Below are positions 9,686 through 20,845 of a stretch of 64,000 nucleotides of DNA, piece by piece. Position numbers and translations under genes: made by a program. Below the pieces are notes generated by a model. It saw only the letters and a list, made by a program, of their open reading frames with translations. It was not told where the DNA came from and did no database searches. The stretch comes from Leptospiria bacterium (GTDB lineage: Bacteria; Spirochaetota; Leptospiria; Turneriellales; CBDBES01). Where the stretch lies: NCBI GenBank assembly GCA_965261485.1, contig CBDHCY010000005.1, positions 333,813 through 397,812 of the forward strand, read 5' to 3'. Numbering within the stretch: the first letter of the stretch is position 1; each line of letters begins with the position of its first letter.

Positions 9686-9931
9686 AATTTTAGTATAATA
9701 TTGTCATAATTATGATCGTGATCTTATTAAATCGCTTTTTTCTAGTTTTCACAAAATTTTTTATTTTGACATAAATAAATTTTAGATTTAGTTAGTGAAG
9801 GGAAAAGATAATGTTTATTAACTATCTTTGATGGGAGTGTTATTTGGCATAGTATAAAAAAATTGAATTCTATTTGTAAGTGTTAATAACAATTTGGCTA
9901 TTCTTTGAATTATTTTAATGAATTTATACTG

Positions 9932-10372
9932 TCAAATTGGACGTTCGAAGGCATGGTTTAAAATAATTGTGCATAAATTTAGAAAAAGAATATAAACAAA
10001 AAAGCATAATAGGTAATTTTGGAGAGATTTAGATTTTTTTTTGATTCCAAGTTTTTCAATAGAAAATTTTTCAATTTGCGAAAATAAGATCGCCCAACCA
10101 ATCCAAAAAAATGATGAAACGATTAAATTTGACATATCATTTGAACTAAAGCGGTTTGTGAATATTTTATAACAAGCATGGATATAATTTGGTTCTAAAA
10201 AATAATTAAAACTAATACCTACGAGAGATACAGCAACAAAATAGTAAAGTATATTTGGCCAGGTGCTTTTCCATATTTTTTCTTTAAGTAAATATGAATA
10301 AGTAAAATAGATAAAAAGTAAACTTAGCCCATAAAATAAATTAGTACGTACCCATTCAAAGAAAAAAAACAT
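9932..10372 (-). CDS. hypothetical integral membrane protein
   Basis: 146 aa with four or more hydrophobic segments. No recognisable family. Confidence 0.3.
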   Translation of the reverse strand: MFFFFEWVRTNLFYGLSLLFIYFTYSYLLKEKIWKSTWPNILYYFVAVSLVGISFNYFLEPNYIHACYKIFTNRFSSNDMSNLIVSSFFWIGWAILFSQIEKFSIEKLGIKKKSKSLQNYLLCFFVYILFLNLCTIILNHAFERPI

Positions 10373-10489
10373 AACTCAATGACTATAATCTAGTAATTAT
10401 AGTGAAAATATAGTCAAAATGTCAAACTTAATTAAAAAATAATATCTTAAATATTTGAGATCATTTTAGAAATCTCCGATATTCTAAGA

Positions 10490-11629
10490 ATGTGGTTGAC
10501 CCGTTCTATTCTTTTATTGTCTGGTTTATTTAGTCTTTATGTCAGTATGACTTGCACTTTAGTGCCTAATCTTTTGGGCATACCATTTTCAAAGAATAAT
10601 AGTTTTAGAAAGAGTAGTCTTGTTAGTATTGGCAGTGAAGAATTTCAGAAAAGAAAAGAGAATACTAAACTAAAACTTGATAATGGCATAGGCTCTAATA
10701 GTGGTGTTGGAAGTACCTTTGATTTAGAAGCTGTTTCTTCAAATTTTTTGGGTGCAATGGCTTTTATAGATATTCCTACCCCTGTTTATACGCGGGGTAT
10801 TTATATTACCAATTCAACCGCTCAATCTGAAGAGAGAATAAAATATTTTTTAGAAAAAGCCAATTTTTATGAACTTAATACTTTTGTAATTGATGTTCAA
10901 AAGCAAATGGTCTCTAAAGAGATTATTGGTATGCTTAAAACTTCTAAAATATTCCCGGTGGCTCGTGTTGTAGTTATGGAAGGAGGTTTGCGACAAAAGG
11001 AATTTTCAAATAAACGTGTTCATACAATACTCAAATTAATTGAAGATGCCTCCGCTCAAGGTTTTTCTGAGGTACAACTTGATTATATTCGCTATGCAGA
11101 TATTGATAGGTTATTAGGTTTGCCTTTATCTTATAAATATAATATTATTCGTTCTCTTCTCTCAAAAGCAAAAAATATTGCTGAGCAAAATAATATTCAT
11201 CTTTCTGCTGATCTATTTGGTCGCATTACTTTAAATCAAAATGATCAGATTGGTCAAAAATTAGAAATTTTCGGAAAATATATGCGAACAATCTATCCGA
11301 TGTTATATCCCTCCCACTATACTAATGACAATAATCGCATATCGAAACCTTATATGACGGTAAAAGAGGGCATCGAAAAAAGTAAAGAACGTTTACCTGA
11401 GCATAGAATTGTCGCTTATATTCAAGGTTTTAATATAAAAGTGAAGCCAAGTCGATTAAATTTTGTTAACTATATAAAAGCACAAATTAAGGCCTGTGAT
11501 GATAGTTTTTCTGATGGTTGGGTTATCTGGAACGCGCGCAATGAGTATGGGCCGTCTTTTCAGGCGATTAAACAGTATAGGGAAGAAAAAACAGCACTTA
11601 AAAATCAAACTTTTAGTAATCGTCTGTGA
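10490..11629 (+). CDS. putative glycoside-hydrolase-like TIM-barrel protein (DUF4015-like), secreted or lipoprotein
   Basis: Signal peptide; FVIDVQK...VVVMEG...EVQLDYIRYAD pattern as recalled from the putative glycosyl hydrolase domain family. Assignment is tentative. Confidence 0.35.
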   Translation: MWLTRSILLLSGLFSLYVSMTCTLVPNLLGIPFSKNNSFRKSSLVSIGSEEFQKRKENTKLKLDNGIGSNSGVGSTFDLEAVSSNFLGAMAFIDIPTPVYTRGIYITNSTAQSEERIKYFLEKANFYELNTFVIDVQKQMVSKEIIGMLKTSKIFPVARVVVMEGGLRQKEFSNKRVHTILKLIEDASAQGFSEVQLDYIRYADIDRLLGLPLSYKYNIIRSLLSKAKNIAEQNNIHLSADLFGRITLNQNDQIGQKLEIFGKYMRTIYPMLYPSHYTNDNNRISKPYMTVKEGIEKSKERLPEHRIVAYIQGFNIKVKPSRLNFVNYIKAQIKACDDSFSDGWVIWNARNEYGPSFQAIKQYREEKTALKNQTFSNRL

Positions 11630-12318
11630 ATTTTTCTAAATTGGGCACCTTATTTTCGGTGGCTCTTCCTATTGGTAATGTAGAAGATATTAGTTTGCGT
11701 GCGAAGAAGGTTCTTGAATATTCTGATTTTCTAGCTTGTGAAGATACTCGTAGAGCTGGAATATCTTTAAGTATGATGAATATTAAAAGACATGGTAAAC
11801 TGCTTTCTTATCATTCATATAATGAGGCTCATTCGGCTGCTGGCCTAATTAAGCTACTTTTAGATGGTAACAATATTTCTTTGATTACTGATTCAGGCTC
11901 TCCTCGTATTTCTGACCCTGGGTATCATATAATCAAGCAATGTTGGGAGCATCAGATCAAGGTTGTTCCTATTCCGGGGAGTTCTGCTTTGAGTTCACTT
12001 TTAAGTATTTGCCCATTTCGTGTAGAGCCTCTTTTATTTTTAGGGTTTATATCACCCAAATCAGGAAGACGTTGCAAAATATTTGAAAAATATAATAATT
12101 TTTTGGGTTCAGTATGTTTTTTTGAGTCAGTTCATCGAATTCAGCAATTTTTGAATGATATTTATAATACTTGGGGAGATCATACCATTTTAATTGGTCG
12201 TGAACTTACCAAAAAACACGAGGAGATATTTTTAGGGAGGGTGGCAGAGGCACTCAATTGGTCGAATAAAAAGAAAGGTGAATTTATATTTTTAATAGAT
12301 AAAACAGAAACGCCCTGA
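11626..12318 (+). CDS. rsmI: 16S rRNA (cytidine1402-2'-O)-methyltransferase
   Basis: ALPIGNVEDISLRAKKVL...LACEDTRR, PGSSAL, and ESVHRI...TILIGRELTKKHEE are typical RsmI motifs. GTG start overlaps the upstream stop. Confidence 0.85.
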   Translation: MNFSKLGTLFSVALPIGNVEDISLRAKKVLEYSDFLACEDTRRAGISLSMMNIKRHGKLLSYHSYNEAHSAAGLIKLLLDGNNISLITDSGSPRISDPGYHIIKQCWEHQIKVVPIPGSSALSSLLSICPFRVEPLLFLGFISPKSGRRCKIFEKYNNFLGSVCFFESVHRIQQFLNDIYNTWGDHTILIGRELTKKHEEIFLGRVAEALNWSNKKKGEFIFLIDKTETP

Positions 12319-12364
12319 ATATAGTTTTGTGAGCATAGGTTGGCAATGTAGCCATTAAAAAAGG

Positions 12365-12391
12365 TTGACAATATCTGCAGTATATTAGAGT
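12365..12391 (+). promoter_or_regulatory. candidate sigma70-type promoter of GLUG paralogue 1
   Basis: TTGACA at 12365-12370 and TAGAGT at 12386-12391 (15-nt spacer, suboptimal). The same arrangement is retained in all three duplicated units. Confidence 0.3.
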
Positions 12392-12430
12392 TTTGTGCGT
12401 GCTCCGTCTGAAGGGTAGTTAAGGGGTCGA

Positions 12431-15013
12431 ATGCATTTTTGGAGAGGTAATCAGATGAAACAAATGAAACAAATGAAAAAAAATAAATATTTAAGCTTTG
12501 GGTGCTTTATTTTTAACTATTTTTCCAAAATTAATTTTAGTAGTAGAGTATGCATTTTAGTTATTTTAAGCTCTCTATTTTTACCCTTTTGTGCCGGAGG
12601 CTCAGAAGATCCCGGTACTAAAGTAGTAGATCCCGGTACTAAAGTAGTAGACCCCGGTACTAAAGTCGTAGACCCCCCACCGGGGGGGCCAGAGACAATC
12701 ACCAAAGTAGGCGTTCAATCATATTTTTGCACGAATGGTGTCAAAAAAGATCCTGTGAATCTAGCAGTAGCTAGTGCTTCCACCCCTGATAAACAGGGCT
12801 GTGCGAGCTGTGATCGGCACTATCGTGTAGCAAGTGGCTCCTTCTTAGATGATGGTAGCACTTGTGTGGCTCGTACTTGTGCGGTAGAGGGAGAAGAGCC
12901 ATGTTCAACTTGTTATGCCGGCTCTGTGCGTAGTGGTCATACATCCGACGGGTTGCCTACCTCAGTTCCTTCTGAGAGTACGTGTGTTCAAGTTGATAGT
13001 GATAATAATAAACTTATTGATATAACAACGCTCACTCAATTACATAATATGAGGTATAATCTTGCGGGAACCTCTTATAAAACAGATGCATCCACTGTGG
13101 CTGGGGAGTGCGGCACCTATGGCGATGCCGACGGTATCTATGAGATTGCTTCAGATAGCTGTATAGGCTACGAGCTTATGAATGACTTAAACTTTGATTC
13201 TGATGATCAGGATGATGATAGTACTTACACGCCTTCTACAACCGGAGGAGTAACAACTTATATCCTAGATAATGATGATAATGCTGCACCTTATTTTGTA
13301 GTAACAGGGGTAACAGATAATGGCGTCACTAGTTACAGTGGTGGTTGGGATCCAATTGATGATTTTGCAACTACCTTTAATGGTAATGATAATACTATTA
13401 CTGGTCTTGCTATTAGTCGTGGTGATTCTGATGATACTCGTATTGGTATGTTTGGTACTATAACAGCTGATGCAATGATCCATAATATTAATTTAAATTA
13501 CAATCTGTCTGAATATACTGGCTCAGCAACAGATGATGTTCAAATTGGTGGTTTGGTGGGGTTTAGTTTGGGCACTATTACTACCAGTTCGGTCATTGAT
13601 GGGAAGGTTAGGAGTCCTGCTCTTGCAGGTGGTTTAGTGGGTTTCCAACAGGGCAAAAAAATTAATGCCTCTATTGGTATTGCTACTGTTAGTGGTAGTA
13701 TTGCCGGTGGTTTAGTAGGTCAGTCGATGGATAGCCAAATTGCGACTAGTTATGCTACTGGTGATGTTAACGGCGGAACCGGTGATAATAAATTAGGTGG
13801 TTTAGTGGGTCAGTCCATTAATAGCAAAATTAGAATTAGTTATGCTACTGGTGCTGTAATAGGCGGGGCTGGTGCTGATCACTTAGGTGGTTTAGTGGGC
13901 GAATCTGAAAATAGTCAAATCATCACTAGTTATGCTACTGGTGCTGTAACAGGCGGGGCTGGTGCTGATCGCTTAGGTGGTTTAGTGGGCGAGTCTATAA
14001 ATAGCCAAATTATCGCTAGCCATGCTACTATTGGTGCTATAACTAGTGAGGCTGGTGCTAATTACTTAGGTGGTTTAGTGGGTAATTTTGAAGTTCTAAA
14101 TAAGGCGAATAATAATAAGAAGGGTATTATTGTCGCTAGTTATGCTACTGGTGCTGTAGCTGGCGGAATCGGTACTGATGGGTTAGGTGGTCTGGTTGGT
14201 CAAATTTGGATTACTGGTGATACTACTGTTAGTAATCCTCGTCCTGTTAGTGAAGTTATTGTCACTGTTATCGCTAGTTATGCCACTGGTAATTTAATGG
14301 GTGGTGATGCGAGCGATAACTTAGGCGGCCTAGTGGGTTATGTTGATGACAATTCTAGTGAAAAGGTTACTATTACTGCTAGTTATGCTACTGGTGCTAT
14401 AACTGGTGAAGGTGGTCAAGATACGTTAGGTGGTCTGGTAGGTTACTTTGGGGATAAGTCTTCTGTTGTCCTTACGAAGGCTCACATTACTGCGAGTTAT
14501 GCTAATAATGTAGAGCTTACAGATGATACTGATCCGCTCCAACATCTGGGCTCGTTAGTAGGTAATTTAAGTAATGGAAACGTTCAGATTACTGATAGCT
14601 ATGGTTTTGCCACTCTTGAAGGAGGTACTAATCCTCAAATTGCTACATTTGCAAATGAAGTTGGGGATTTAGTAGCTGTAGGTGTCACTCCAAGTGGTGT
14701 CAGTGCTGCAGCTGATTTAACCCTTACAACGGCTATTACTACCGTTACTGATGCTTCAGATACAAATGCTATTAGTAGGAAAGATACTACATTAGGGGAA
14801 ATATGGAATAAGGCTAAACTGAATACTCTTGGTGCTTGGTTCTTTGAGACGGGTGTCGCTCCTACACTCAAATTTAATGATTACGATGGTCCTGTTGTTG
14901 GTACTACTGGCGATGTTTATAGTTGCTCCCCCTCTGACAATTACTTCACGATCACCATAGGGAGCAACACTATCGACACCATGCGTTCTTGTGGTGGTTC
15001 GATAACACAGTAG
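12431..15013 (+). CDS. GLUG-repeat surface lipoprotein, tandem paralogue 1 (probable true start is ATG 12455, after GGAGAGG)
   Basis: Signal peptide ending LFLPFC-AGGS (loose lipobox). Cys-rich N-domain, then a IDITTLTQLHNMRYNLAG core. At least 12 repeats of about 28-31 aa of the form GGLVG....I..SYATG.V.G....D.LGGLVG, which I recall as the GLUG motif family. Confidence 0.7.
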   Translation: MHFWRGNQMKQMKQMKKNKYLSFGCFIFNYFSKINFSSRVCILVILSSLFLPFCAGGSEDPGTKVVDPGTKVVDPGTKVVDPPPGGPETITKVGVQSYFCTNGVKKDPVNLAVASASTPDKQGCASCDRHYRVASGSFLDDGSTCVARTCAVEGEEPCSTCYAGSVRSGHTSDGLPTSVPSESTCVQVDSDNNKLIDITTLTQLHNMRYNLAGTSYKTDASTVAGECGTYGDADGIYEIASDSCIGYELMNDLNFDSDDQDDDSTYTPSTTGGVTTYILDNDDNAAPYFVVTGVTDNGVTSYSGGWDPIDDFATTFNGNDNTITGLAISRGDSDDTRIGMFGTITADAMIHNINLNYNLSEYTGSATDDVQIGGLVGFSLGTITTSSVIDGKVRSPALAGGLVGFQQGKKINASIGIATVSGSIAGGLVGQSMDSQIATSYATGDVNGGTGDNKLGGLVGQSINSKIRISYATGAVIGGAGADHLGGLVGESENSQIITSYATGAVTGGAGADRLGGLVGESINSQIIASHATIGAITSEAGANYLGGLVGNFEVLNKANNNKKGIIVASYATGAVAGGIGTDGLGGLVGQIWITGDTTVSNPRPVSEVIVTVIASYATGNLMGGDASDNLGGLVGYVDDNSSEKVTITASYATGAITGEGGQDTLGGLVGYFGDKSSVVLTKAHITASYANNVELTDDTDPLQHLGSLVGNLSNGNVQITDSYGFATLEGGTNPQIATFANEVGDLVAVGVTPSGVSAAADLTLTTAITTVTDASDTNAISRKDTTLGEIWNKAKLNTLGAWFFETGVAPTLKFNDYDGPVVGTTGDVYSCSPSDNYFTITIGSNTIDTMRSCGGSITQ
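12608..12670 (+). repeat. 3 x 21-bp in-frame tandem repeat (DPGTKVV) directly after the lipobox Cys
   Basis: GATCCCGGTACTAAAGTAGTA occurs three times (third unit has 2 substitutions). Paralogue 2 has a single unit. Confidence 0.9.
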
Positions 15014-15025
15014 CGTAGTAAAATA

Positions 15026-15060
15026 AAATTTATCTCTTGCTTGCAGTGAGAGATAAATTT
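15026..15060 (+). terminator. hairpin downstream of paralogue 1
   Basis: AAATTTATCTCT (15026-15037) pairs perfectly with AGAGATAAATTT (15049-15060), with an 11-nt loop. No clean T-run follows, so terminator function is inferred from position and conservation after all three genes. Confidence 0.5.
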
Positions 15061-15105
15061 GAATTAAACTTTTGAATGGTTGAACTATTTGAAAATCTAA
15101 GCTCC

Positions 15106-15196
15106 TTTTTAAGGAGGGCGATTAGAGGCATTTAATTGGTCGAATAAAAAGAAAGGTGAATTTATATTTTAAATAGATGAAACAGAAACGCCCTGA
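15106..15196 (+). repeat. duplicated fragment of the rsmI 3' end (non-functional gene fragment), copy 1
   Basis: Aligns by eye to rsmI 12228-12318, including the ...NWSNKKKGEFIF... coding sequence and the stop, with a few substitutions and indels. Confidence 0.8.
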
Positions 15197-15261
15197 ATAT
15201 AGTTTTGTGACTATAGGTTGGCAATATAGCCATTGAAAAATATTAATATTTCTAAAAAAGA

Positions 15262-15288
15262 TTGACAATCTCTACAGTAAATTAGGAT
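15262..15288 (+). promoter_or_regulatory. candidate promoter of GLUG paralogue 2
   Basis: TTGACA at 15262-15267 and TAGGAT at 15283-15288 (15-nt spacer). Homologous position to 12365-12391. Confidence 0.3.
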
Positions 15289-15349
15289 TGGATGTGTGCT
15301 CCGTCTGAAAGATAGTGCGGGGTAGAATAAATTTTGAAGAGGTAATCAA

Positions 15350-18166
15350 ATGAAACAAATAAAAAACAATAAATATTTAAGCTTTGGGTACTTTATTTTT
15401 AACTATTTTTCCAAAATTAATTTTAGTAGCAGAGTATGCATTTTAGTTATTTTAAGCTCTCTATTTTTACCCTTTTGTGCCGGAGGCTCAGAAGATCCCG
15501 GTACTAAAGTCGTAGACCCCCCCGTAGTAGCCCCCCCCACCGGTGAACCAGAGACAATCACCAAAGTAGGCGTTCAATCATATTTTTGCACGAATGGTGT
15601 CAAAAAAGATCCTGTGAATCTAGCAGTAGCTAGTGCTTCCAGCCCTGATAAACAGGGCTGTCAGAGTTGTAATGCACGCTATCGTATAGCAAGTGGCTCC
15701 TTCTCAGATGATGGTAGCTCTTGTGTGCGTCGTACTTGTGCTGATAATGGTGATGATGCTGTTGCTCCTGCTGCTGTTACTGCTCTTGCCGGATCTCCTT
15801 TGGCATGTCCTCGAGTGACTAGTTCGCCTAATACCTACGATGGCTGTTATTTCGACTATATGCGTAGTGGTCATGAACCCGCATCCGAGGGAATGCAGGG
15901 TAAACCCACTGAAGAACTTTATAATAGTGAGTGTGTTCAGGTTGATAGTGATAATGATAAACTTATTGATATAACAACACTCACTCAATTATATAATATG
16001 AGGCATAACACTTTTGGAGACTTTTATCACGTAGCTACCTCAACTGCAGCTGGAGCGTGCGGCAGCTACGGTGGTGCCGAGGGTGATGTATATACTCGTG
16101 CAGCTTGTGCTGGCTATGAGCTTATGAATAACCTAAGCTTTGATAAAAATAAGAATGGTATTACTTACGATAGCAATGGTCTAGATCCAGGTGATGATGC
16201 CGTACCTTATTTTGTAGTAGATTCTACTGATTCTAGTAATATTATTGGTGGTTGGGAGCCAATAGTTAATTTTGCAAGTACCTTTGATGGTAATGGTAAT
16301 ACTATTACTGGCCTTGCTATTCGTAAGACTAGGACTGGTACTGGTACTGGTACTGTCAGTATTGGTATGTTTGGTTCTATAAGACATGCACCAGCACGTT
16401 CTGCAGTGATTCGTGATATTAATTTAGTTGATAATCTAGCTGAATATTATTCAGCCCCAAGTACAGCTCCAAGTGGTCGTATTCATGTTGGCGGTTTGGT
16501 AGGTACTAGTCTTGAGAACGTTATTACTGGAAGTAATAGTGTGGGCACTATTACCGGAAGTTCTACCAGTGGAGAGGCTAAGGGTCCTTTTGCTACAGGT
16601 GGTTTAGTAGGCTTCCAAGAGGACTTAAAAATTGAAAGTAGTCATGCTACTGGTTCTGTGAGTTATGTTAGTAGTTCTGCTAATTTCTTTGGAGGTGGTT
16701 TAGTAGGGCGTTCTAAGAATGGCAAAATTATCACTAGTTATGCTTCTGGTGCTGTAACAGGCGGGGCTGGTGATGATCGCTTAGGCGGTTTAGTGGGCGA
16801 GTCTCTAAATGGCCAAATTATCGATAGTTCTGCTACTGGTACTGTAACTGTAACTGTAACAGGTGGGGCTGGTAGTGATTACTTAGGTGGTTTAGTAGGG
16901 CGTTCTAGGAATGGCGAAATTATCACTAGTTTTGCTACTGGTGCTGTAACAGGTGGGGCTGGTGATGATCTCTTAGGCGGTTTAGTGGGCGAGTCTAAGC
17001 TTAATAGCCAAATCATCACTAGTTATGCTACTGGTACTGTAAGAGGTGCGGCTGGTAATGATTACTTAGGTGGTTTAGTGGGCAAGTCTTCCAGTAGCCA
17101 AATTATCGATAGTTTTGCTTCTGGTGCTGTAACTGGTGGGGCTGATAATGATAAGTTAGGTGGTTTAGTGGGCGAGTCTCTAAATAGCCAAATCATCGCT
17201 AGTCATGCTACTAGTGATGTAACAAGCGAGGCTGGTGCTAATTACTTAGGTGGTTTAGTGGGTTATTTTAAAGTCGATCTAACGAAGAGTGGTACTATTG
17301 CCGCTAGTTATGCTATTGGTGCTGTAACTGGTGGAGCCAATATTGATCGTGCCGGTGGTCTGGTTGGTGATATTATAGCTCAACTTGATGGTATGGGGGG
17401 GAGTACTAATGGGGCTGTCACTGTTATCGCTAGTTATGCTACTGGTGCTGTAAGTGGTCTTGCTGACGATGATGTTTTAGGTGGTCTGATTGGTCGTATT
17501 GATAACACTACTATTCCTCCTGGTAATACAGGTCAAACTCATGGGGGGAGTTCAGTTGTCTTTACTGCCACTTATGCTACTGGTGCTGTAACTGGTGGTG
17601 CTGGTTCAGATAGCTTAGGTGGTCTGATAGGTATTTTAAATGGGGCTGCCATCATTGCGAGTTATGCTACTAACAGTGGGGGGCTTAATGCTGCTAGCGG
17701 TAGCAGGCAGTTTGTTGGTCGGTTAGTAGGTATTCCAGGTACTCCTCGGATTACTGAGAGTTATGGTTTTACGGTACCTACAGGTATTGATGCTGATGAG
17801 GCTAATGTAGGTATAGCACCAAATGGTATCGCTGCTGCAACTGGTTTAACCTCTGCTGGTTTAATCTCTGCTATGGTTGGTAATGCAGGTGATAAATGGG
17901 ATAAGGTTGTTGCATTTGTTCCCCCCGAGCAGGGGAGCAGTACGGGTACAGCCGCTATTCATACTTCTGGTGCTTGGTTCTTTGGGACGAGTGCCGCTCC
18001 TACACCCCAATTTAATGATTACGATGGTCTTGCTGCTGGTACTACTGGCACTATTTATAATTGCTCCGCTCCATCCACTCCAGCTATGAATTTTTTCGAG
18101 ATCAAGCTTCCAAATATCGATAAGATCACAACCACACGTTCTTGTGGTAGTTCGATAACGCAGTAG
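15350..18166 (+). CDS. GLUG-repeat surface lipoprotein, tandem paralogue 2
   Basis: The first ~105 residues are near-identical to paralogue 1 apart from the post-lipobox repeat/linker segment (signal peptide, LFLPFC lipobox, ETITKVGVQSYFCTNGVKKDPVNLAVASAS). It has a divergent Cys-rich region and more than 14 GGLVG/SYATGAVTGGAG repeats. SD GAAGAGG lies 7 nt before the ATG. Confidence 0.7.
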   Translation: MKQIKNNKYLSFGYFIFNYFSKINFSSRVCILVILSSLFLPFCAGGSEDPGTKVVDPPVVAPPTGEPETITKVGVQSYFCTNGVKKDPVNLAVASASSPDKQGCQSCNARYRIASGSFSDDGSSCVRRTCADNGDDAVAPAAVTALAGSPLACPRVTSSPNTYDGCYFDYMRSGHEPASEGMQGKPTEELYNSECVQVDSDNDKLIDITTLTQLYNMRHNTFGDFYHVATSTAAGACGSYGGAEGDVYTRAACAGYELMNNLSFDKNKNGITYDSNGLDPGDDAVPYFVVDSTDSSNIIGGWEPIVNFASTFDGNGNTITGLAIRKTRTGTGTGTVSIGMFGSIRHAPARSAVIRDINLVDNLAEYYSAPSTAPSGRIHVGGLVGTSLENVITGSNSVGTITGSSTSGEAKGPFATGGLVGFQEDLKIESSHATGSVSYVSSSANFFGGGLVGRSKNGKIITSYASGAVTGGAGDDRLGGLVGESLNGQIIDSSATGTVTVTVTGGAGSDYLGGLVGRSRNGEIITSFATGAVTGGAGDDLLGGLVGESKLNSQIITSYATGTVRGAAGNDYLGGLVGKSSSSQIIDSFASGAVTGGADNDKLGGLVGESLNSQIIASHATSDVTSEAGANYLGGLVGYFKVDLTKSGTIAASYAIGAVTGGANIDRAGGLVGDIIAQLDGMGGSTNGAVTVIASYATGAVSGLADDDVLGGLIGRIDNTTIPPGNTGQTHGGSSVVFTATYATGAVTGGAGSDSLGGLIGILNGAAIIASYATNSGGLNAASGSRQFVGRLVGIPGTPRITESYGFTVPTGIDADEANVGIAPNGIAAATGLTSAGLISAMVGNAGDKWDKVVAFVPPEQGSSTGTAAIHTSGAWFFGTSAAPTPQFNDYDGLAAGTTGTIYNCSAPSTPAMNFFEIKLPNIDKITTTRSCGSSITQ

Positions 18167-18184
18167 CGGTAGTTGTAAAATATA

Positions 18185-18220
18185 AAATTTATCTCTTGCT
18201 TTGCAGTGAGAGATAAATTT
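18185..18220 (+). terminator. hairpin downstream of paralogue 2
   Basis: AAATTTATCTCT (18185-18196) pairs with AGAGATAAATTT (18209-18220), with a 12-nt loop. Confidence 0.5.
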
Positions 18221-18264
18221 GAATAAATCTTTTGAGTGGTTGAACTATTTGAAATCTGAGCTAC

Positions 18265-18354
18265 TTTTTAGAAAGGGCGTCAGAGCCACTCAATTGATCG
18301 AATAAAAAGAAAGGCGAGTTTATGTTTTTAATAGATAGAACATAAACGCCTTGA
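18265..18354 (+). repeat. duplicated fragment of the rsmI 3' end, copy 2 (more diverged)
   Basis: ...CAGAGCCACTCAATTGATCGAATAAAAAGAAAGGCGAGTTTATG...AACGCCTTGA aligns to the last ~90 bp of rsmI. Confidence 0.7.
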
Positions 18355-18417
18355 ATATAGTCTTGTGAGCATAGTTCGGCAATGCAGCCATTAAAAAAGA
18401 TTGCCAGTATCTAAAGA

Positions 18418-18445
18418 TTGACAATATCTGCAATATAATTAGAGT
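18418..18445 (+). promoter_or_regulatory. candidate promoter of GLUG paralogue 3
   Basis: TTGACA at 18418-18423 and TAGAGT at 18440-18445 (16-nt spacer). Homologous to the other two units. Confidence 0.3.
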
Positions 18446-18509
18446 TGAGTGCGTACCTTAATTTGAAGGGCAGTATAGAGATAAGATATATTTTTGAAGA
18501 GGTAATCAA

Positions 18510-20795
18510 ATGAAGCAAATGAAAAACAATAAATATTTAAGCTTTGGGTGCTTTATTTTTAACTATTTTTCCAAGATTAATAGTAATTTTAATAGTAAAA
18601 TATGTATTTTAGTTATTTTAAGCTCTCTATTTTTACTTTTTTGTGGTGGAGGCTCCAAAGTAGCCGGCCGCAAAATAGTCAGCTCCGAAGTAGCCCATGA
18701 ACAATCATATGTTTGTACGAATGGTACCCCAAAAGAATCTATTACTTTACCAATAGGTATGGATCCCGTTGCTGATAAAAAGAGTTGCAATAGATGTGAT
18801 GTACACTATCGTGTAGCAAGTGGCCCAGAACTTACTGAGGTTGGTAGCACTTGTGTGACTCGTACTTGTGCGGTAGAGGGAGAAGAGCCATGTTCAACTT
18901 GTTATGCCGGTTTTGTGCGTAGTGGTCATACATCCGACGGTATGTCTACGTCAGTTCTTTCTGAGAGTACGTGTGTTCAGATTGATAGTGATAATGATAA
19001 ACTTATTGATATAACAACACTCACTCAATTACATAATATGAGGAATAATCTCGCTGGAACCTCTTATAAAACAGATGCATCCACTGTGGCTGGGGAGTGC
19101 GGTACCTATGGCGATGTCGAGGGTGAATATACTACAGCTTTAGGTAGCTGTATGGGCTATGAGCTTATGAATGACCTAAGCTTTGATACTGATACAGATG
19201 GTACTCACGACAGCGATGGTCTAGATACGGCTGATAAAAATTTAGTTTATTTTCCAGTAGGTTCTAATAAGGATGGTGGTTGGGAGCCAATAGTTGGTTT
19301 TGCAACTACCTTTAATGGTAATGGTAATACTATTACTGGCCTTGCTATTCGTCGTCCCAGTGCTCGTATTGGTATGTTTGGTAATATAACAACTGATGCA
19401 GTGATCCGTAATATTAATTTAGCTGATAATCTAGCTGAATATTATATCGTCTCAGGAAAAAATATACCTAACAGTGTTCATGTTGGCGGTTTGGTGGGTA
19501 ATAGTAAGGGCACTATTATTGGAAGTTCTACCAGTGGAAAGGCTAAGGGTCCTCTTATTACAGGTGGTTTAGTAGGCTTCCAAAAGTCCTTAAAAATTGA
19601 AAGCAGTCATGCTACTGGTACTGTGAGTTATATTAGTAGTTCTACCACTCCTACAACTAATTTCTCTGGAGGTGGTTTAGTAGGGCGTTGTAATGCTGGC
19701 AAAATTATCACTAGTTCTGCTACTGGTGCTGTAACAGGTGGGGATGGTAAGGATCTCTTAGGTGGTTTAGTAGGGCGTTTAGTTGAGAATGGCGAAATTA
19801 TCACTAGTTCTGCTACTGGTGCTGTAACAGGTGGGGATGGTAATGATCAGTTAGGTGGTTTAGTGGGCGAGTCTCTAAATAGCCAAATTATCACTAGTTC
19901 TGCTACTGGTGCTGTAACAGGTGGGGATGGTACTAATTACTTAGGTGGTTTAGTGGGTAATTTTAGGGTCGATCGTGATAAGAGTGGTATTATTGTCGCT
20001 AGTTATGCTACTGGTGCTGTAACAGGTGGAGCCGATGTTGATAATGCCGGTGGTCTTATAGGTCGTATTGAGACTCTGCGTACTGGAAGCGTGATTTTGG
20101 GAGGAGTTGCTTCTATTGTTACTGTTATAGCTAGTTCTGCTGCTGGTGCTATAATTGGTGATGCTAGTGACGATTTTTTAGGTGGTCTGGTTGGTAATGT
20201 TGATGGGGACTCTGGTAAGCGAGTTACTATTACTGCCAGTTATGCTACTGGTGATGTAACTGGTACTGGAAGTGGTGGTACTAATTCTGATGTTTTAGGT
20301 GGTCTGGTAGGTTTTTTAGGGGGATCTAGCAAAATTATTGCAAGTTATGCTAATAATAATAACCTTCTTCCTGGTGGCGGCGGTAATCAAGGTTTTGGTA
20401 GCTTAGTAGGTTCTGGTTCTGGAGCTGACCGGGTTATTGAGAGTTATGGTTTTTTTTCATTTAGTAGTGGTACACCAAATTTACTTGGTGGTACACCATC
20501 AAGTAGTATCACTACTGCAGCTGGTTTAATCTCTGCTACCTCTGGTAATGCAGGTGTCAAATGGAATCAGGTTACTCCCGCTACTGCTACTGAGCCTGCT
20601 ATTCATACTCTTGGTGCTTGGTTCTTTGAGACGGGTGTCGCTCCTAAACTCCAATTTAATGATTACGACGGTGGTGGCACTGTTTATAGTTGCTCCTCTT
20701 CTGGAAATTATTTTACGATCACCATAGGGGGCAACGATATCGAAACCACGCGTGTTTGTAGTACTGAAGATAATCCGAGTCTGATAACACAATAG
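18510..20795 (+). CDS. GLUG-repeat surface lipoprotein, tandem paralogue 3
   Basis: Signal peptide with LFLLFC-GGGS. The Cys-rich and LIDITTLTQLHNMRNNLAGTSYKTDASTVAGECGTYGD region is nearly identical to paralogue 1. GGLVG repeats are present, and the C-terminal LGAWFFETGVAP.L.FNDYDG is shared with paralogue 1. Confidence 0.7.
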   Translation: MKQMKNNKYLSFGCFIFNYFSKINSNFNSKICILVILSSLFLLFCGGGSKVAGRKIVSSEVAHEQSYVCTNGTPKESITLPIGMDPVADKKSCNRCDVHYRVASGPELTEVGSTCVTRTCAVEGEEPCSTCYAGFVRSGHTSDGMSTSVLSESTCVQIDSDNDKLIDITTLTQLHNMRNNLAGTSYKTDASTVAGECGTYGDVEGEYTTALGSCMGYELMNDLSFDTDTDGTHDSDGLDTADKNLVYFPVGSNKDGGWEPIVGFATTFNGNGNTITGLAIRRPSARIGMFGNITTDAVIRNINLADNLAEYYIVSGKNIPNSVHVGGLVGNSKGTIIGSSTSGKAKGPLITGGLVGFQKSLKIESSHATGTVSYISSSTTPTTNFSGGGLVGRCNAGKIITSSATGAVTGGDGKDLLGGLVGRLVENGEIITSSATGAVTGGDGNDQLGGLVGESLNSQIITSSATGAVTGGDGTNYLGGLVGNFRVDRDKSGIIVASYATGAVTGGADVDNAGGLIGRIETLRTGSVILGGVASIVTVIASSAAGAIIGDASDDFLGGLVGNVDGDSGKRVTITASYATGDVTGTGSGGTNSDVLGGLVGFLGGSSKIIASYANNNNLLPGGGGNQGFGSLVGSGSGADRVIESYGFFSFSSGTPNLLGGTPSSSITTAAGLISATSGNAGVKWNQVTPATATEPAIHTLGAWFFETGVAPKLQFNDYDGGGTVYSCSSSGNYFTITIGGNDIETTRVCSTEDNPSLITQ

Positions 20796-20810: not shown

Positions 20811-20845
20811 AAATTTATCTATTGCTTGCAGTGATAGATAAATTT
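20811..20845 (+). terminator. hairpin downstream of paralogue 3
   Basis: AAATTTATCTAT (20811-20822) pairs with ATAGATAAATTT (20834-20845). Relative to the other two copies, a C:G pair is replaced by A:T on both arms. Confidence 0.5.

Follow-up and report, generated by a model that had tools for sequence, protein, structure and literature searches.

That gene conversion can turn families of surface proteins into mosaics is textbook knowledge for Treponema, Borrelia, Neisseria, Helicobacter and Streptococcus. In Treponema pallidum, the tpr family includes chimeras (tprC/D/F/I and tprG/J) whose subfamilies exchange segments by gene conversion. In Leptospira, gene conversion keeps the N-terminal halves of ligA and ligB identical, and mosaic alleles occur between species. 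Streptococcus pyogenes carries the tandem M-like genes emm, mrp and enn, which belong to the mga regulon. Here we describe a mosaic array of three tandem paralogues with the GLUG motif, P1, P2 and P3, on 64,000 nt of DNA from a Leptospiria bacterium (GenBank assembly GCA_965261485.1, contig CBDHCY010000005.1, positions 333,813 to 397,812; hereafter the window). The process is familiar from the tpr, lig, emm-like and pmp genes and is here newly documented for a GLUG family, predicted to form β-helices, of an uncultured spirochaete.

Like P1-P3, the tpr genes encode putative surface proteins of a spirochaete, are mosaics of one another with conserved ends and variable centers, and form strain-specific chimeras. 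However, Tpr proteins are outer-membrane proteins of the major outer sheath protein (MOSP) type, their loci are mostly dispersed, and tprK has silent donor cassettes, of which there are none here. The Lig proteins are tandem-repeat lipoprotein adhesins from a Leptospira lineage to which our organism is related, and they likewise combine a near-identical, leader-containing stretch with a divergent remainder. They differ in being built of Big (immunoglobulin-like) domains and in being encoded by two dispersed genes, in contrast to the tandem triplet and dispersed subfamily found here. The emm/mrp/enn region shares with our locus one to three tandem surface-protein genes per strain, chimeras and copy-number change through recombination of neighbors, and hypervariability between conserved flanks, but its products are coiled-coil, LPXTG-anchored proteins of a Gram-positive vertebrate pathogen.

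The Pmp proteins of Chlamydia also form a partly tandem multigene family with a parallel β-helix and recombination hot spots, and their short, Gly-rich repeat GGA[ILV] may be compared with GGLVG in P1-P3. Pmp proteins are autotransporters with a C-terminal β-barrel, whereas P1-P3 have a lipoprotein-like leader and no barrel domain. Finally, in Borrelia vlsE/vls, Neisseria pilE/pilS and Anaplasma msp2, segmental gene conversion diversifies a surface protein, as it appears to do here. Those systems pair one expression site with silent cassettes and act within a single infection, whereas P1-P3 are full-length genes and their shared tracts are aged (synonymous divergence, dS, of 0.06-0.15).

Mosaic blocks in the tandem genes

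The three genes are complete open reading frames (ORFs) in tandem, and their proteins are 59-62% identical to one another. Positions here and below are those of the window.

12455..15013 (12431 from the earliest start), + strand: paralogue 1 (P1), 852 aa (852-860 aa over the possible starts; other ATGs at 12431 and 12464), with GLUG motif and lipoprotein-like leader; equals P0001 at 100% identity
15350..18166, + strand: paralogue 2 (P2), 938 aa; equals P0002; has a long Cys-rich insert that is also present in both array genes of the sister strain
18510..20795, + strand: paralogue 3 (P3), 761 aa; equals P0003; residues ~160-650 predicted to form a parallel β-helix

We aligned P1-P3 by codon, sorted the 701 informative sites by the pair that each unites, and followed identity in 90-nt sliding windows. 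Blocks were segmented with a four-state hidden Markov model (HMM) on the informative sites and checked independently with a repeat finder, whose repeats carry D numbers; block claims are confined to the sequence outside the central GLUG repeats. The HMM returned nine segments, with the nearest partner switching at least eight times along the alignment. On P1, its breakpoints fall at 12853/12860, 13241, 13264-13271, 13538/13543, 13778, 14734, 14822/14828 and 14983/14987. The blocks, along P1, are as follows.

12469..12853, equal to P2 15355-15712, + strand: P1=P2 block spanning the leader, the linker and the first of the Cys motifs, with 68 of 85 informative sites in support
12860..13147, equal to P3 18849-19136, + strand: P1=P3 block covering the Cys-rich segment and LIDITTLTQLHNMR..GECGTYGD; found by both the HMM and the repeat finder
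13205..13365, + strand: short-subfamily-type block in P1, aa 248-300, DDDSTYT..YILDNDDNAAPYFVVTG..SYSGGWDPIDD; assigned at the protein level only
13543..13778, where P2 16486-16766 equals P3 19481-19743, + strand: first P2=P3 block, with P1 the outlier; ~90% identity, 60 of 77 informative sites
14735..14822, with P2 17855-17960 and P3 20520-20604, + strand: second P2=P3 block; 41 of 55 informative sites
14828..14983, equal to P3 20610-20750, + strand: C-terminal P1=P3 block, GAWFFETGVAP..FNDYDG..NYFTITIG; 28 informative sites against 8 and 7
14987..15349, + strand: end of P1 and spacer 1; the last 24 nt of the gene (RSCG.SITQ) and the spacer resemble the end of P2 and spacer 2

A preliminary description of this DNA had proposed that P1 is nearly identical to P2 in the signal peptide and the ETITKVGVQSYFCTNGVKK stretch and then changes partner, matching P3 in the Cys-rich and LIDITTLTQLHNMR segment. 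Over 12464-12830, P1 is indeed 93-99% identical to P2 at the nucleotide level in 90-nt windows, and 100% identical across 12699-12780, with P3 at ~65%; the repeat finder gives 96% for P1-P2 across 177 nt (D5). The change of partner is equally clear. P1 12848-13147 matches P3 18837-19136 at 91% across 300 nt (D7), and in windows over 12845-13115 P1 and P3 are 91-94% identical, while P2 stands at ~62-73%, rising to 80-86% in the LIDITTLTQL core common to all three genes. Alignment of the breakpoint places the switch at about 12854-12870, within the conserved GS(T/S)CV.RTC.

At the C-terminus, the same description had assigned FNDYDG and NYFTITIG to P1 and P3, and RSCG.SITQ to P1 and P2. The informative sites listed above bear out the first assignment, and the second extends beyond the coding sequence, running on from the end of the gene into the downstream spacer. 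All statements of that description hold, and its coordinates were right to within about 20-30 nt. It did not include the two P2=P3 blocks: the sliding windows show P2 and P3 to be ~90% identical over P1 13544-13730 and then again over 14684-14800, and in the first of these blocks the repeat finder gives 90% across 146 nt (D13).

The clustering of like sites along the alignment is highly significant. Adjacency of like sites among the 701 informative sites yields z=10.8, with 0/10000 permutations as extreme, and a maximum-excursion (3SEQ-like) statistic was likewise exceeded in 0/10000 permutations when each gene in turn was treated as the 'child'. Sawyer-type longest concordant runs are significant at P<0.0005 for P1-P2, P1-P3 and A-B, the pair of array genes in the sister strain; for P2-P3, P=0.002. 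The pairwise homoplasy index (PHI) needs more than three sequences and was hence computed on five genes; its value of z=-29 is inflated by the orthologous flanks in the alignment, of which the per-pair run tests are independent. All of these breakpoint-type tests (3SEQ-like, PHI, runs and site clustering) are significant, and the sliding windows alternate sharply between partners.

Synonymous sites show the switch of partner as well. Over the first block, P1-P2 has a dS of 0.155 and P1-P3 one of 0.447; over the second the order reverses, P1-P3 standing at 0.148 and P1-P2 at 0.344. The first P2=P3 block (13543-13778) has a dS of 0.064 for P2-P3, vs 0.32-0.45 for the other pairs. Whole-gene ratios of nonsynonymous to synonymous differences per site (pN/pS) between paralogues are 0.84-1.04; amino-acid change outside the short conserved anchors is essentially unconstrained or favored (pN/pS about 1). 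For P2-P3 over 16118-16780 the ratio reaches 1.81 (one-sided P=0.01, uncorrected, in a region picked post hoc), which is suggestive of positive selection there.

Sister strain, dispersed paralogues and the duplicated unit

The sole other strain available for the array is represented by L001, a 34.7-kb conspecific metagenome contig (ERZ26693861, 2x coverage). L001 is collinear with the window, with flanks 97.8% and 98.4% identical; between the two, flanking genes have a proportion of synonymous differences (pS) of 0.04-0.055 and a pN/pS of 0.04-0.22. Its array consists of two genes, A and B, vs three in the window, and each of them is 62-75% identical to any of P1-P3, about the distance between the paralogues themselves. 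High identity between the window and L001 stops just past the signal peptide (~12616) and returns at the P3 stop codon.

Within the array, copies from one genome can resemble each other more than they resemble copies from the other strain. In the LIDITTLTQL region, P1-P3 identity is 85-98% and A-B identity is 86-100%, whereas P1 and A are just 42-87% identical in the same columns, in a comparison with one relative. As identity in this tract is higher within than between genomes, homogenization has taken place separately in each genome, the mark of concerted evolution. Gene A combines a P1-like 5′ flank with a P2-like 3′ end and spacer. This mixture, together with the difference of three vs two genes, is consistent with unequal crossing-over that changes gene number.

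We note that frameshifts interrupt both L001 array genes (9711-14775 of that contig), A once and B several times; at 2x coverage, these may represent either pseudogenization or indel errors. By its LeuA sequence, the organism falls among uncultured spirochaetes, the nearest named matches being Spirochaetia and Leptospiraceae metagenome-assembled genomes at 56-63% identity. Relatives whose leuA is 75-78% identical have no array at this position, and hence provide no outgroup for polarity. A scan of genome contigs found no close relative (best match 44%), and a scan of metagenome contigs found distant relatives only, up to 35%.

Beyond the array, at least seven more members of the family are encoded in the genome (P0006, P0011, P0017, P0035, P0036, P0053 and P0054), and segments of the array recur among such dispersed copies. 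On L002, from the sister strain, a short-subfamily gene is 92.1% identical to P1 and 91.2% to P3 at the nucleotide level in the Cys-rich/LIDITTLTQL block, the matches spanning P1 12857-13085 and P3 18836-19074 (91-92%). At the protein level, the P1/P3 type of this block is also found in P0006, P0011, P0017 and P0008; the two sister-strain array genes have, like P2, the longer insert type instead. In protein windows, aa 248-300 of P1 are 79-83% identical to the short paralogues P0006 and P0035, vs 36-45% to P2 and P3, and P0017 is itself a patchwork of P0006 and P0035 types. Judged from these sequences, the patchwork is family-wide and extends beyond the triad. The likeness of P1 and P3 may stem partly from both having received the segment from short paralogues, the presumed donors.

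More distant relatives of the family (28-44% identity) are found in numerous copies in metagenome-assembled genomes (MAGs) of unrelated phyla (loci L003-L078). The MAGs are labeled Dehalococcoidia, Latescibacterota, Ca. Porisulfidus, Ca. Poriferisocius, Oxydemutatoraceae and Spirochaetia. Sponge-symbiont names are borne by several; read from record titles only, this suggests a family enriched in, or horizontally spread among, host-associated bacteria. In L079 (1-6651), from a relative whose leuA is 78% identical, a pair of GLUG genes sits beside an IS66 transposase/TnpB pair in the vicinity of leuA, on the opposite strand. This neighborhood is a possible route for the dispersal of family members.

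The array lies between a DUF4015 gene and a TP_methylase gene upstream and leuA-ilvB downstream, and its spacers record how it was built. The elements outside the coding sequences are the following.

12230..12318, + strand: 3′ end of the TP_methylase (rsmI-like) gene; left edge of the duplicated unit and source of both spacer relics
15026-15060 and ~15107-15215, + strand: spacer 1 elements, a hairpin and a methyltransferase relic respectively, followed by the conserved TTGACA box and ribosome-binding site (RBS)
18167..18509, + strand: spacer 2, with hairpin at 18185-18220, relic at ~18265-18372, TTGACA box and RBS
20811..20845, + strand: hairpin after P3, in which CTCT/GAGAG of the other two hairpins has become CTAT/GATAG, a compensatory change in both arms that keeps the stem

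In both spacers, the final ~90 bp of the methyltransferase gene recur in degenerate form, with 91% identity to the source in spacer 1 and 86.5% in spacer 2, and the relics translate to ..NWSNKKKGEFIF*IDETETP*, internal stops (asterisks) included. The duplicated unit therefore began inside the methyltransferase gene and ended past the hairpin. The single spacer of the sister strain also holds a methyltransferase relic, and its closest match is spacer 2 (87%). Spacers 1 and 2 are 80% identical to each other, less alike than several of the coding blocks, so those blocks were homogenized after the duplication.

A hairpin with a 16-bp stem lies 3′ of every stop codon (z=-2.4 to -3.8), without the U-tract typical of intrinsic terminators, and the three genes are each preceded by a conserved TTGACA box and a GAAGAGG RBS of their own. 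In a promoter/terminator consensus scan, matches were no more frequent than expected from shuffled sequence, and our statements on promoters are based only on conservation of the TTGACA box. With its own start, leader, RBS, TTGACA box, hairpin and intact ORF, each of P1-P3 is a complete unit and not a silent cassette.

Repeat number is a further source of difference among the genes. Aligned with one another, the GLUG arrays of P1-P3 differ by indels of whole repeats, and P1 has an additional short repeat near its N-terminus.

13706..14082, + strand: P1 GLUG repeat array, 90-nt (30-aa) unit, 4.2 copies
16693-17262, + strand: P2 GLUG repeat array, 90-nt unit, 6.2 copies
19670-19954, + strand: P3 GLUG repeat array, 90-nt unit, 3.1 copies
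12607..12676, + strand: DPGTKVV tandem repeat, 21 nt and in frame, 3.3 copies, in the P1 linker after the lipobox

In-frame repeats after the lipobox occur elsewhere in the family, with copy numbers that differ by paralogue and strain. DPGTKVV is present three times in P1 and once in P2, DPGPKVE twice in gene A of the sister strain (L001 9711-9953), and MNPDS in ~9 copies at the N-terminus of P0008 vs 2 in P0017.

Origin of the mosaic pattern

We consider it likely that the mosaic arose by homologous recombination across the multigene family, through ectopic gene conversion and unequal crossing-over. Recombination between the genes had already been suggested in the preliminary description, and the switching blocks, the permutation tests and the signal at synonymous sites all agree with it; segmental exchange between family members alone fits these data. 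The tandem array would have arisen by duplication of a ~3-kb unit comprising the last ~90 bp of the methyltransferase gene, a promoter-like region, the gene and a terminator-like hairpin. Repeated exchange would have followed, in the form of non-reciprocal ectopic gene conversion among the tandem copies and with the dispersed short paralogues, presumably by a RecA-type mechanism. Unequal crossing-over would alter gene number (three here, two in the conspecific) as well as how many 90-nt GLUG repeats a gene contains. The joints of exchange would lie in short conserved anchors between variable segments, such as GS(T/S)CV.RTC, LIDITTLTQL, GYELMN and GGLVG, and each gene would come to hold a different combination of segment types. 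The outcome would be a strain-specific repertoire of chimeric proteins, as opposed to switching at a single expression site.

The explanation that the preliminary description had set against recombination, uneven selective constraint along the protein, is scarcely credible to us. The anchors LIDITTLTQL, GGLVG and FNDYDG are conserved in all family members, as constraint would have it, but constraint moves all three pairwise identities together and cannot change which pair is closest. Moreover, the permutation tests on informative sites are significant and condition on variable sites, so neither rate heterogeneity nor uneven constraint can yield their result, and a switch of partner at synonymous sites has no explanation in constraint. 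It is also very unlikely, if slightly less so, that a metagenome assembler produced a chimeric consensus across the 3-kb repeats. In favor of an artifact, the genome is apparently metagenome-derived, a single 2.13-Mb contig. Against it, most shared blocks are 88-96% and not 100% identical, the genes differ by in-frame indels and repeat numbers while ORFs of 761-938 aa are kept open, and L001, an independent assembly from another sample, has the same block-wise likeness between A and B.

Staggered partial duplications and unequal crossing-over alone, with no non-reciprocal conversion, would account for the copy number of three vs two, for gene A with its P1-like 5′ flank and P2-like 3′ flank and spacer, and for the varying number of GLUG repeats (3.1, 4.2 and 6.2 copies). 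We nevertheless regard this as improbable. At least eight switches within one gene, several of them less than 300 nt apart, are too many for a few crossovers unless gene number changed each time; blocks common to paralogues at other loci are not obtainable by tandem unequal crossover; and the 80% identity of the spacers implies that the duplication predates several of the shared coding blocks. Recombination between strains has a better, though still minor, chance of being the explanation. Here, array segments or whole alleles would be imported via the conserved flanks, in the way known from capsule and O-antigen loci. The contrast between 98% identity in the flanks and 62-75% in the array interior, the difference in gene number, and the stretch of divergence from ~12616 to the P3 stop codon are together what a replaceable hypervariable cassette, flanked by conserved anchors, would show. 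However, import leaves unexplained why the homogenized pairs differ between genomes (P1-P2 and P1-P3 in the window, A-B in L001) and why a shared block matches dispersed paralogues. Import from other strains is compatible with recombination across the family and probably contributes to the pattern.

Several points weigh against ectopic conversion and unequal crossing-over within the family as we have set them out. No conversion event has been seen directly, and the comparison involves one other strain, on a 2x contig with probable indel errors. The region ~13779-14734, which holds the central GLUG repeats, favors no partner and is ambiguously aligned, making the block count there unreliable. 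The role of this genome's dispersed paralogues is argued from protein identity and from the sister-strain copy. The converted tracts are not identical, their dS of 0.06-0.15 comparing with a pS of about 0.05 for the split between the strains; the exchanges are hence old events, dating from around that split or from before it. The dS of the tracts thus gives no support for ongoing exchange. Finally, conversion within the genome is not cleanly separable from the import of other strains' recombinant alleles.

Two dedicated diversification mechanisms were considered and rejected. For a diversity-generating retroelement, the substitutions in near-identical blocks are not A-biased, and no ORF resembling a reverse transcriptase adjoins the array. 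For a programmed cassette system of the vls, pilE/pilS, msp2 or tprK type, P1-P3 are all full expression units, and there are no silent, truncated, promoterless cassettes. A search for G-quadruplex (G4) motifs found none save a C-run of proline codons inside P2, and the repeat finder detected no flanking direct repeats beyond the paralogous sequence itself.

Predicted proteins and a proposed strain-specific repertoire

P1, P2 and P3 all match the Pfam family PF07581 (GLUG), with 58.9, 82.7 and 43.7 bits respectively (gathering cut-off 20.5). GLUG was the sole Pfam match, and searches of NCBIfam and PDB sequences with P1-P3 gave none; nothing in Pfam, NCBIfam or the PDB sequences matched the Cys-rich segment at the N-terminus or the C-terminal AWFF..DYDG..C..ITQ module. 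An AlphaFold2 model of P3 has a mean predicted local distance difference test score (pLDDT) of 73.7. Residues ~160-650, mostly above 90, are predicted to form a long parallel β-helix with three-strand rungs, and residues 1-155 (leader, linker and Cys-rich part) and ~690-761 are modeled at low confidence.

Foldseek matches this model best to the GLUG domain in a putative Bacteroides ovatus IgA1 protease (BACOVA_03286; PDB 3N6Z, E=1.5e-3, probability 1.00), and next to the pneumococcal IgA1 protease in its N-terminal domain (6XJA); both domains share the GLUG motif. E-values for these GLUG/IgA1 protease matches are weak (1.5e-3 to 0.1), and tailspikes and Ag43-type β-helices come next. P1-P3 have no protease domain.

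In all family members, a hydrophobic core precedes L-x-F-C-[AG]-G-[GS], in which Phe at position -1 is atypical of a canonical lipobox. With this leader and the modeled fold, the products are probably lipid-anchored β-helix surface proteins. From the lipoprotein-like leader (L-x-F-C) and the resemblance of the predicted β-helix to the IgA1 protease GLUG domain, we further infer a role as surface antigens; the agent that would select for their diversity is likewise a matter of inference.

Two more distant GLUG-like genes lie within the window, at 34429-36414 and 39372-41390. Perfect 8-bp microsatellites of ACAGAACT (x17.1 at 34059-34196 and x18.8 at 38989-39138) are found ~230 nt upstream of both, inside duplicated 5′ regions, and the microsatellite is absent from all other loci compared. 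An ATG just 5′ of the microsatellite opens a frame through the repeat (YRTTELQN...), which enters a degenerate copy of the family leader (KKNRSCLRGIF..GLLFCFFRG) and stops past the annotated start. As 8 is not a multiple of 3, slippage of the repeat could switch the frame, and the arrangement makes the microsatellites a candidate phase-variation switch.

Directly 3′ of the same two genes are GC-rich tandem arrays with a period of ~46 bp, at 36452-37621 (25.6 copies) and 41419-41851 (~9 copies), with 76-78% matches, which account for a local GC peak of 0.53 in a genome of ~31% GC. Between the two genes lies an ORF of 349 aa (37733-38782) with a C-terminal 24-nt tandem repeat, MTKGRAEG, present ~7 times (38510-38677).

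A broader idea, which we put forward as speculative and rather doubtful, is that the whole GLUG family, comprising the triplet, at least five short dispersed paralogues and the two distant genes preceded by microsatellites, is a combinatorial segment-exchange system with the anchors as joints, in which a small number of segment types would be recombined into repertoires of surface β-helices specific to each strain, possibly supplemented by slipped-strand on/off switching. If this were true, it would amount to antigenic-variation-like machinery in a probably invertebrate-associated symbiont, whose host has no adaptive immunity, and the driver would perhaps be phage or innate recognition.

GLUG β-helix proteins form a family with almost no literature, and literature searches combining GLUG with gene conversion were uninformative. 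The lack of assignable orthology inside this family is a warning for annotators, and the array locus is useful as a strain-typing marker. At 62-75% identity, vs 98% in the flanks, the array is among the parts of the genome that diverge fastest between conspecifics. This divergence between strains makes its products likely determinants of strain-specific interaction with the host, with phages or with other cells.

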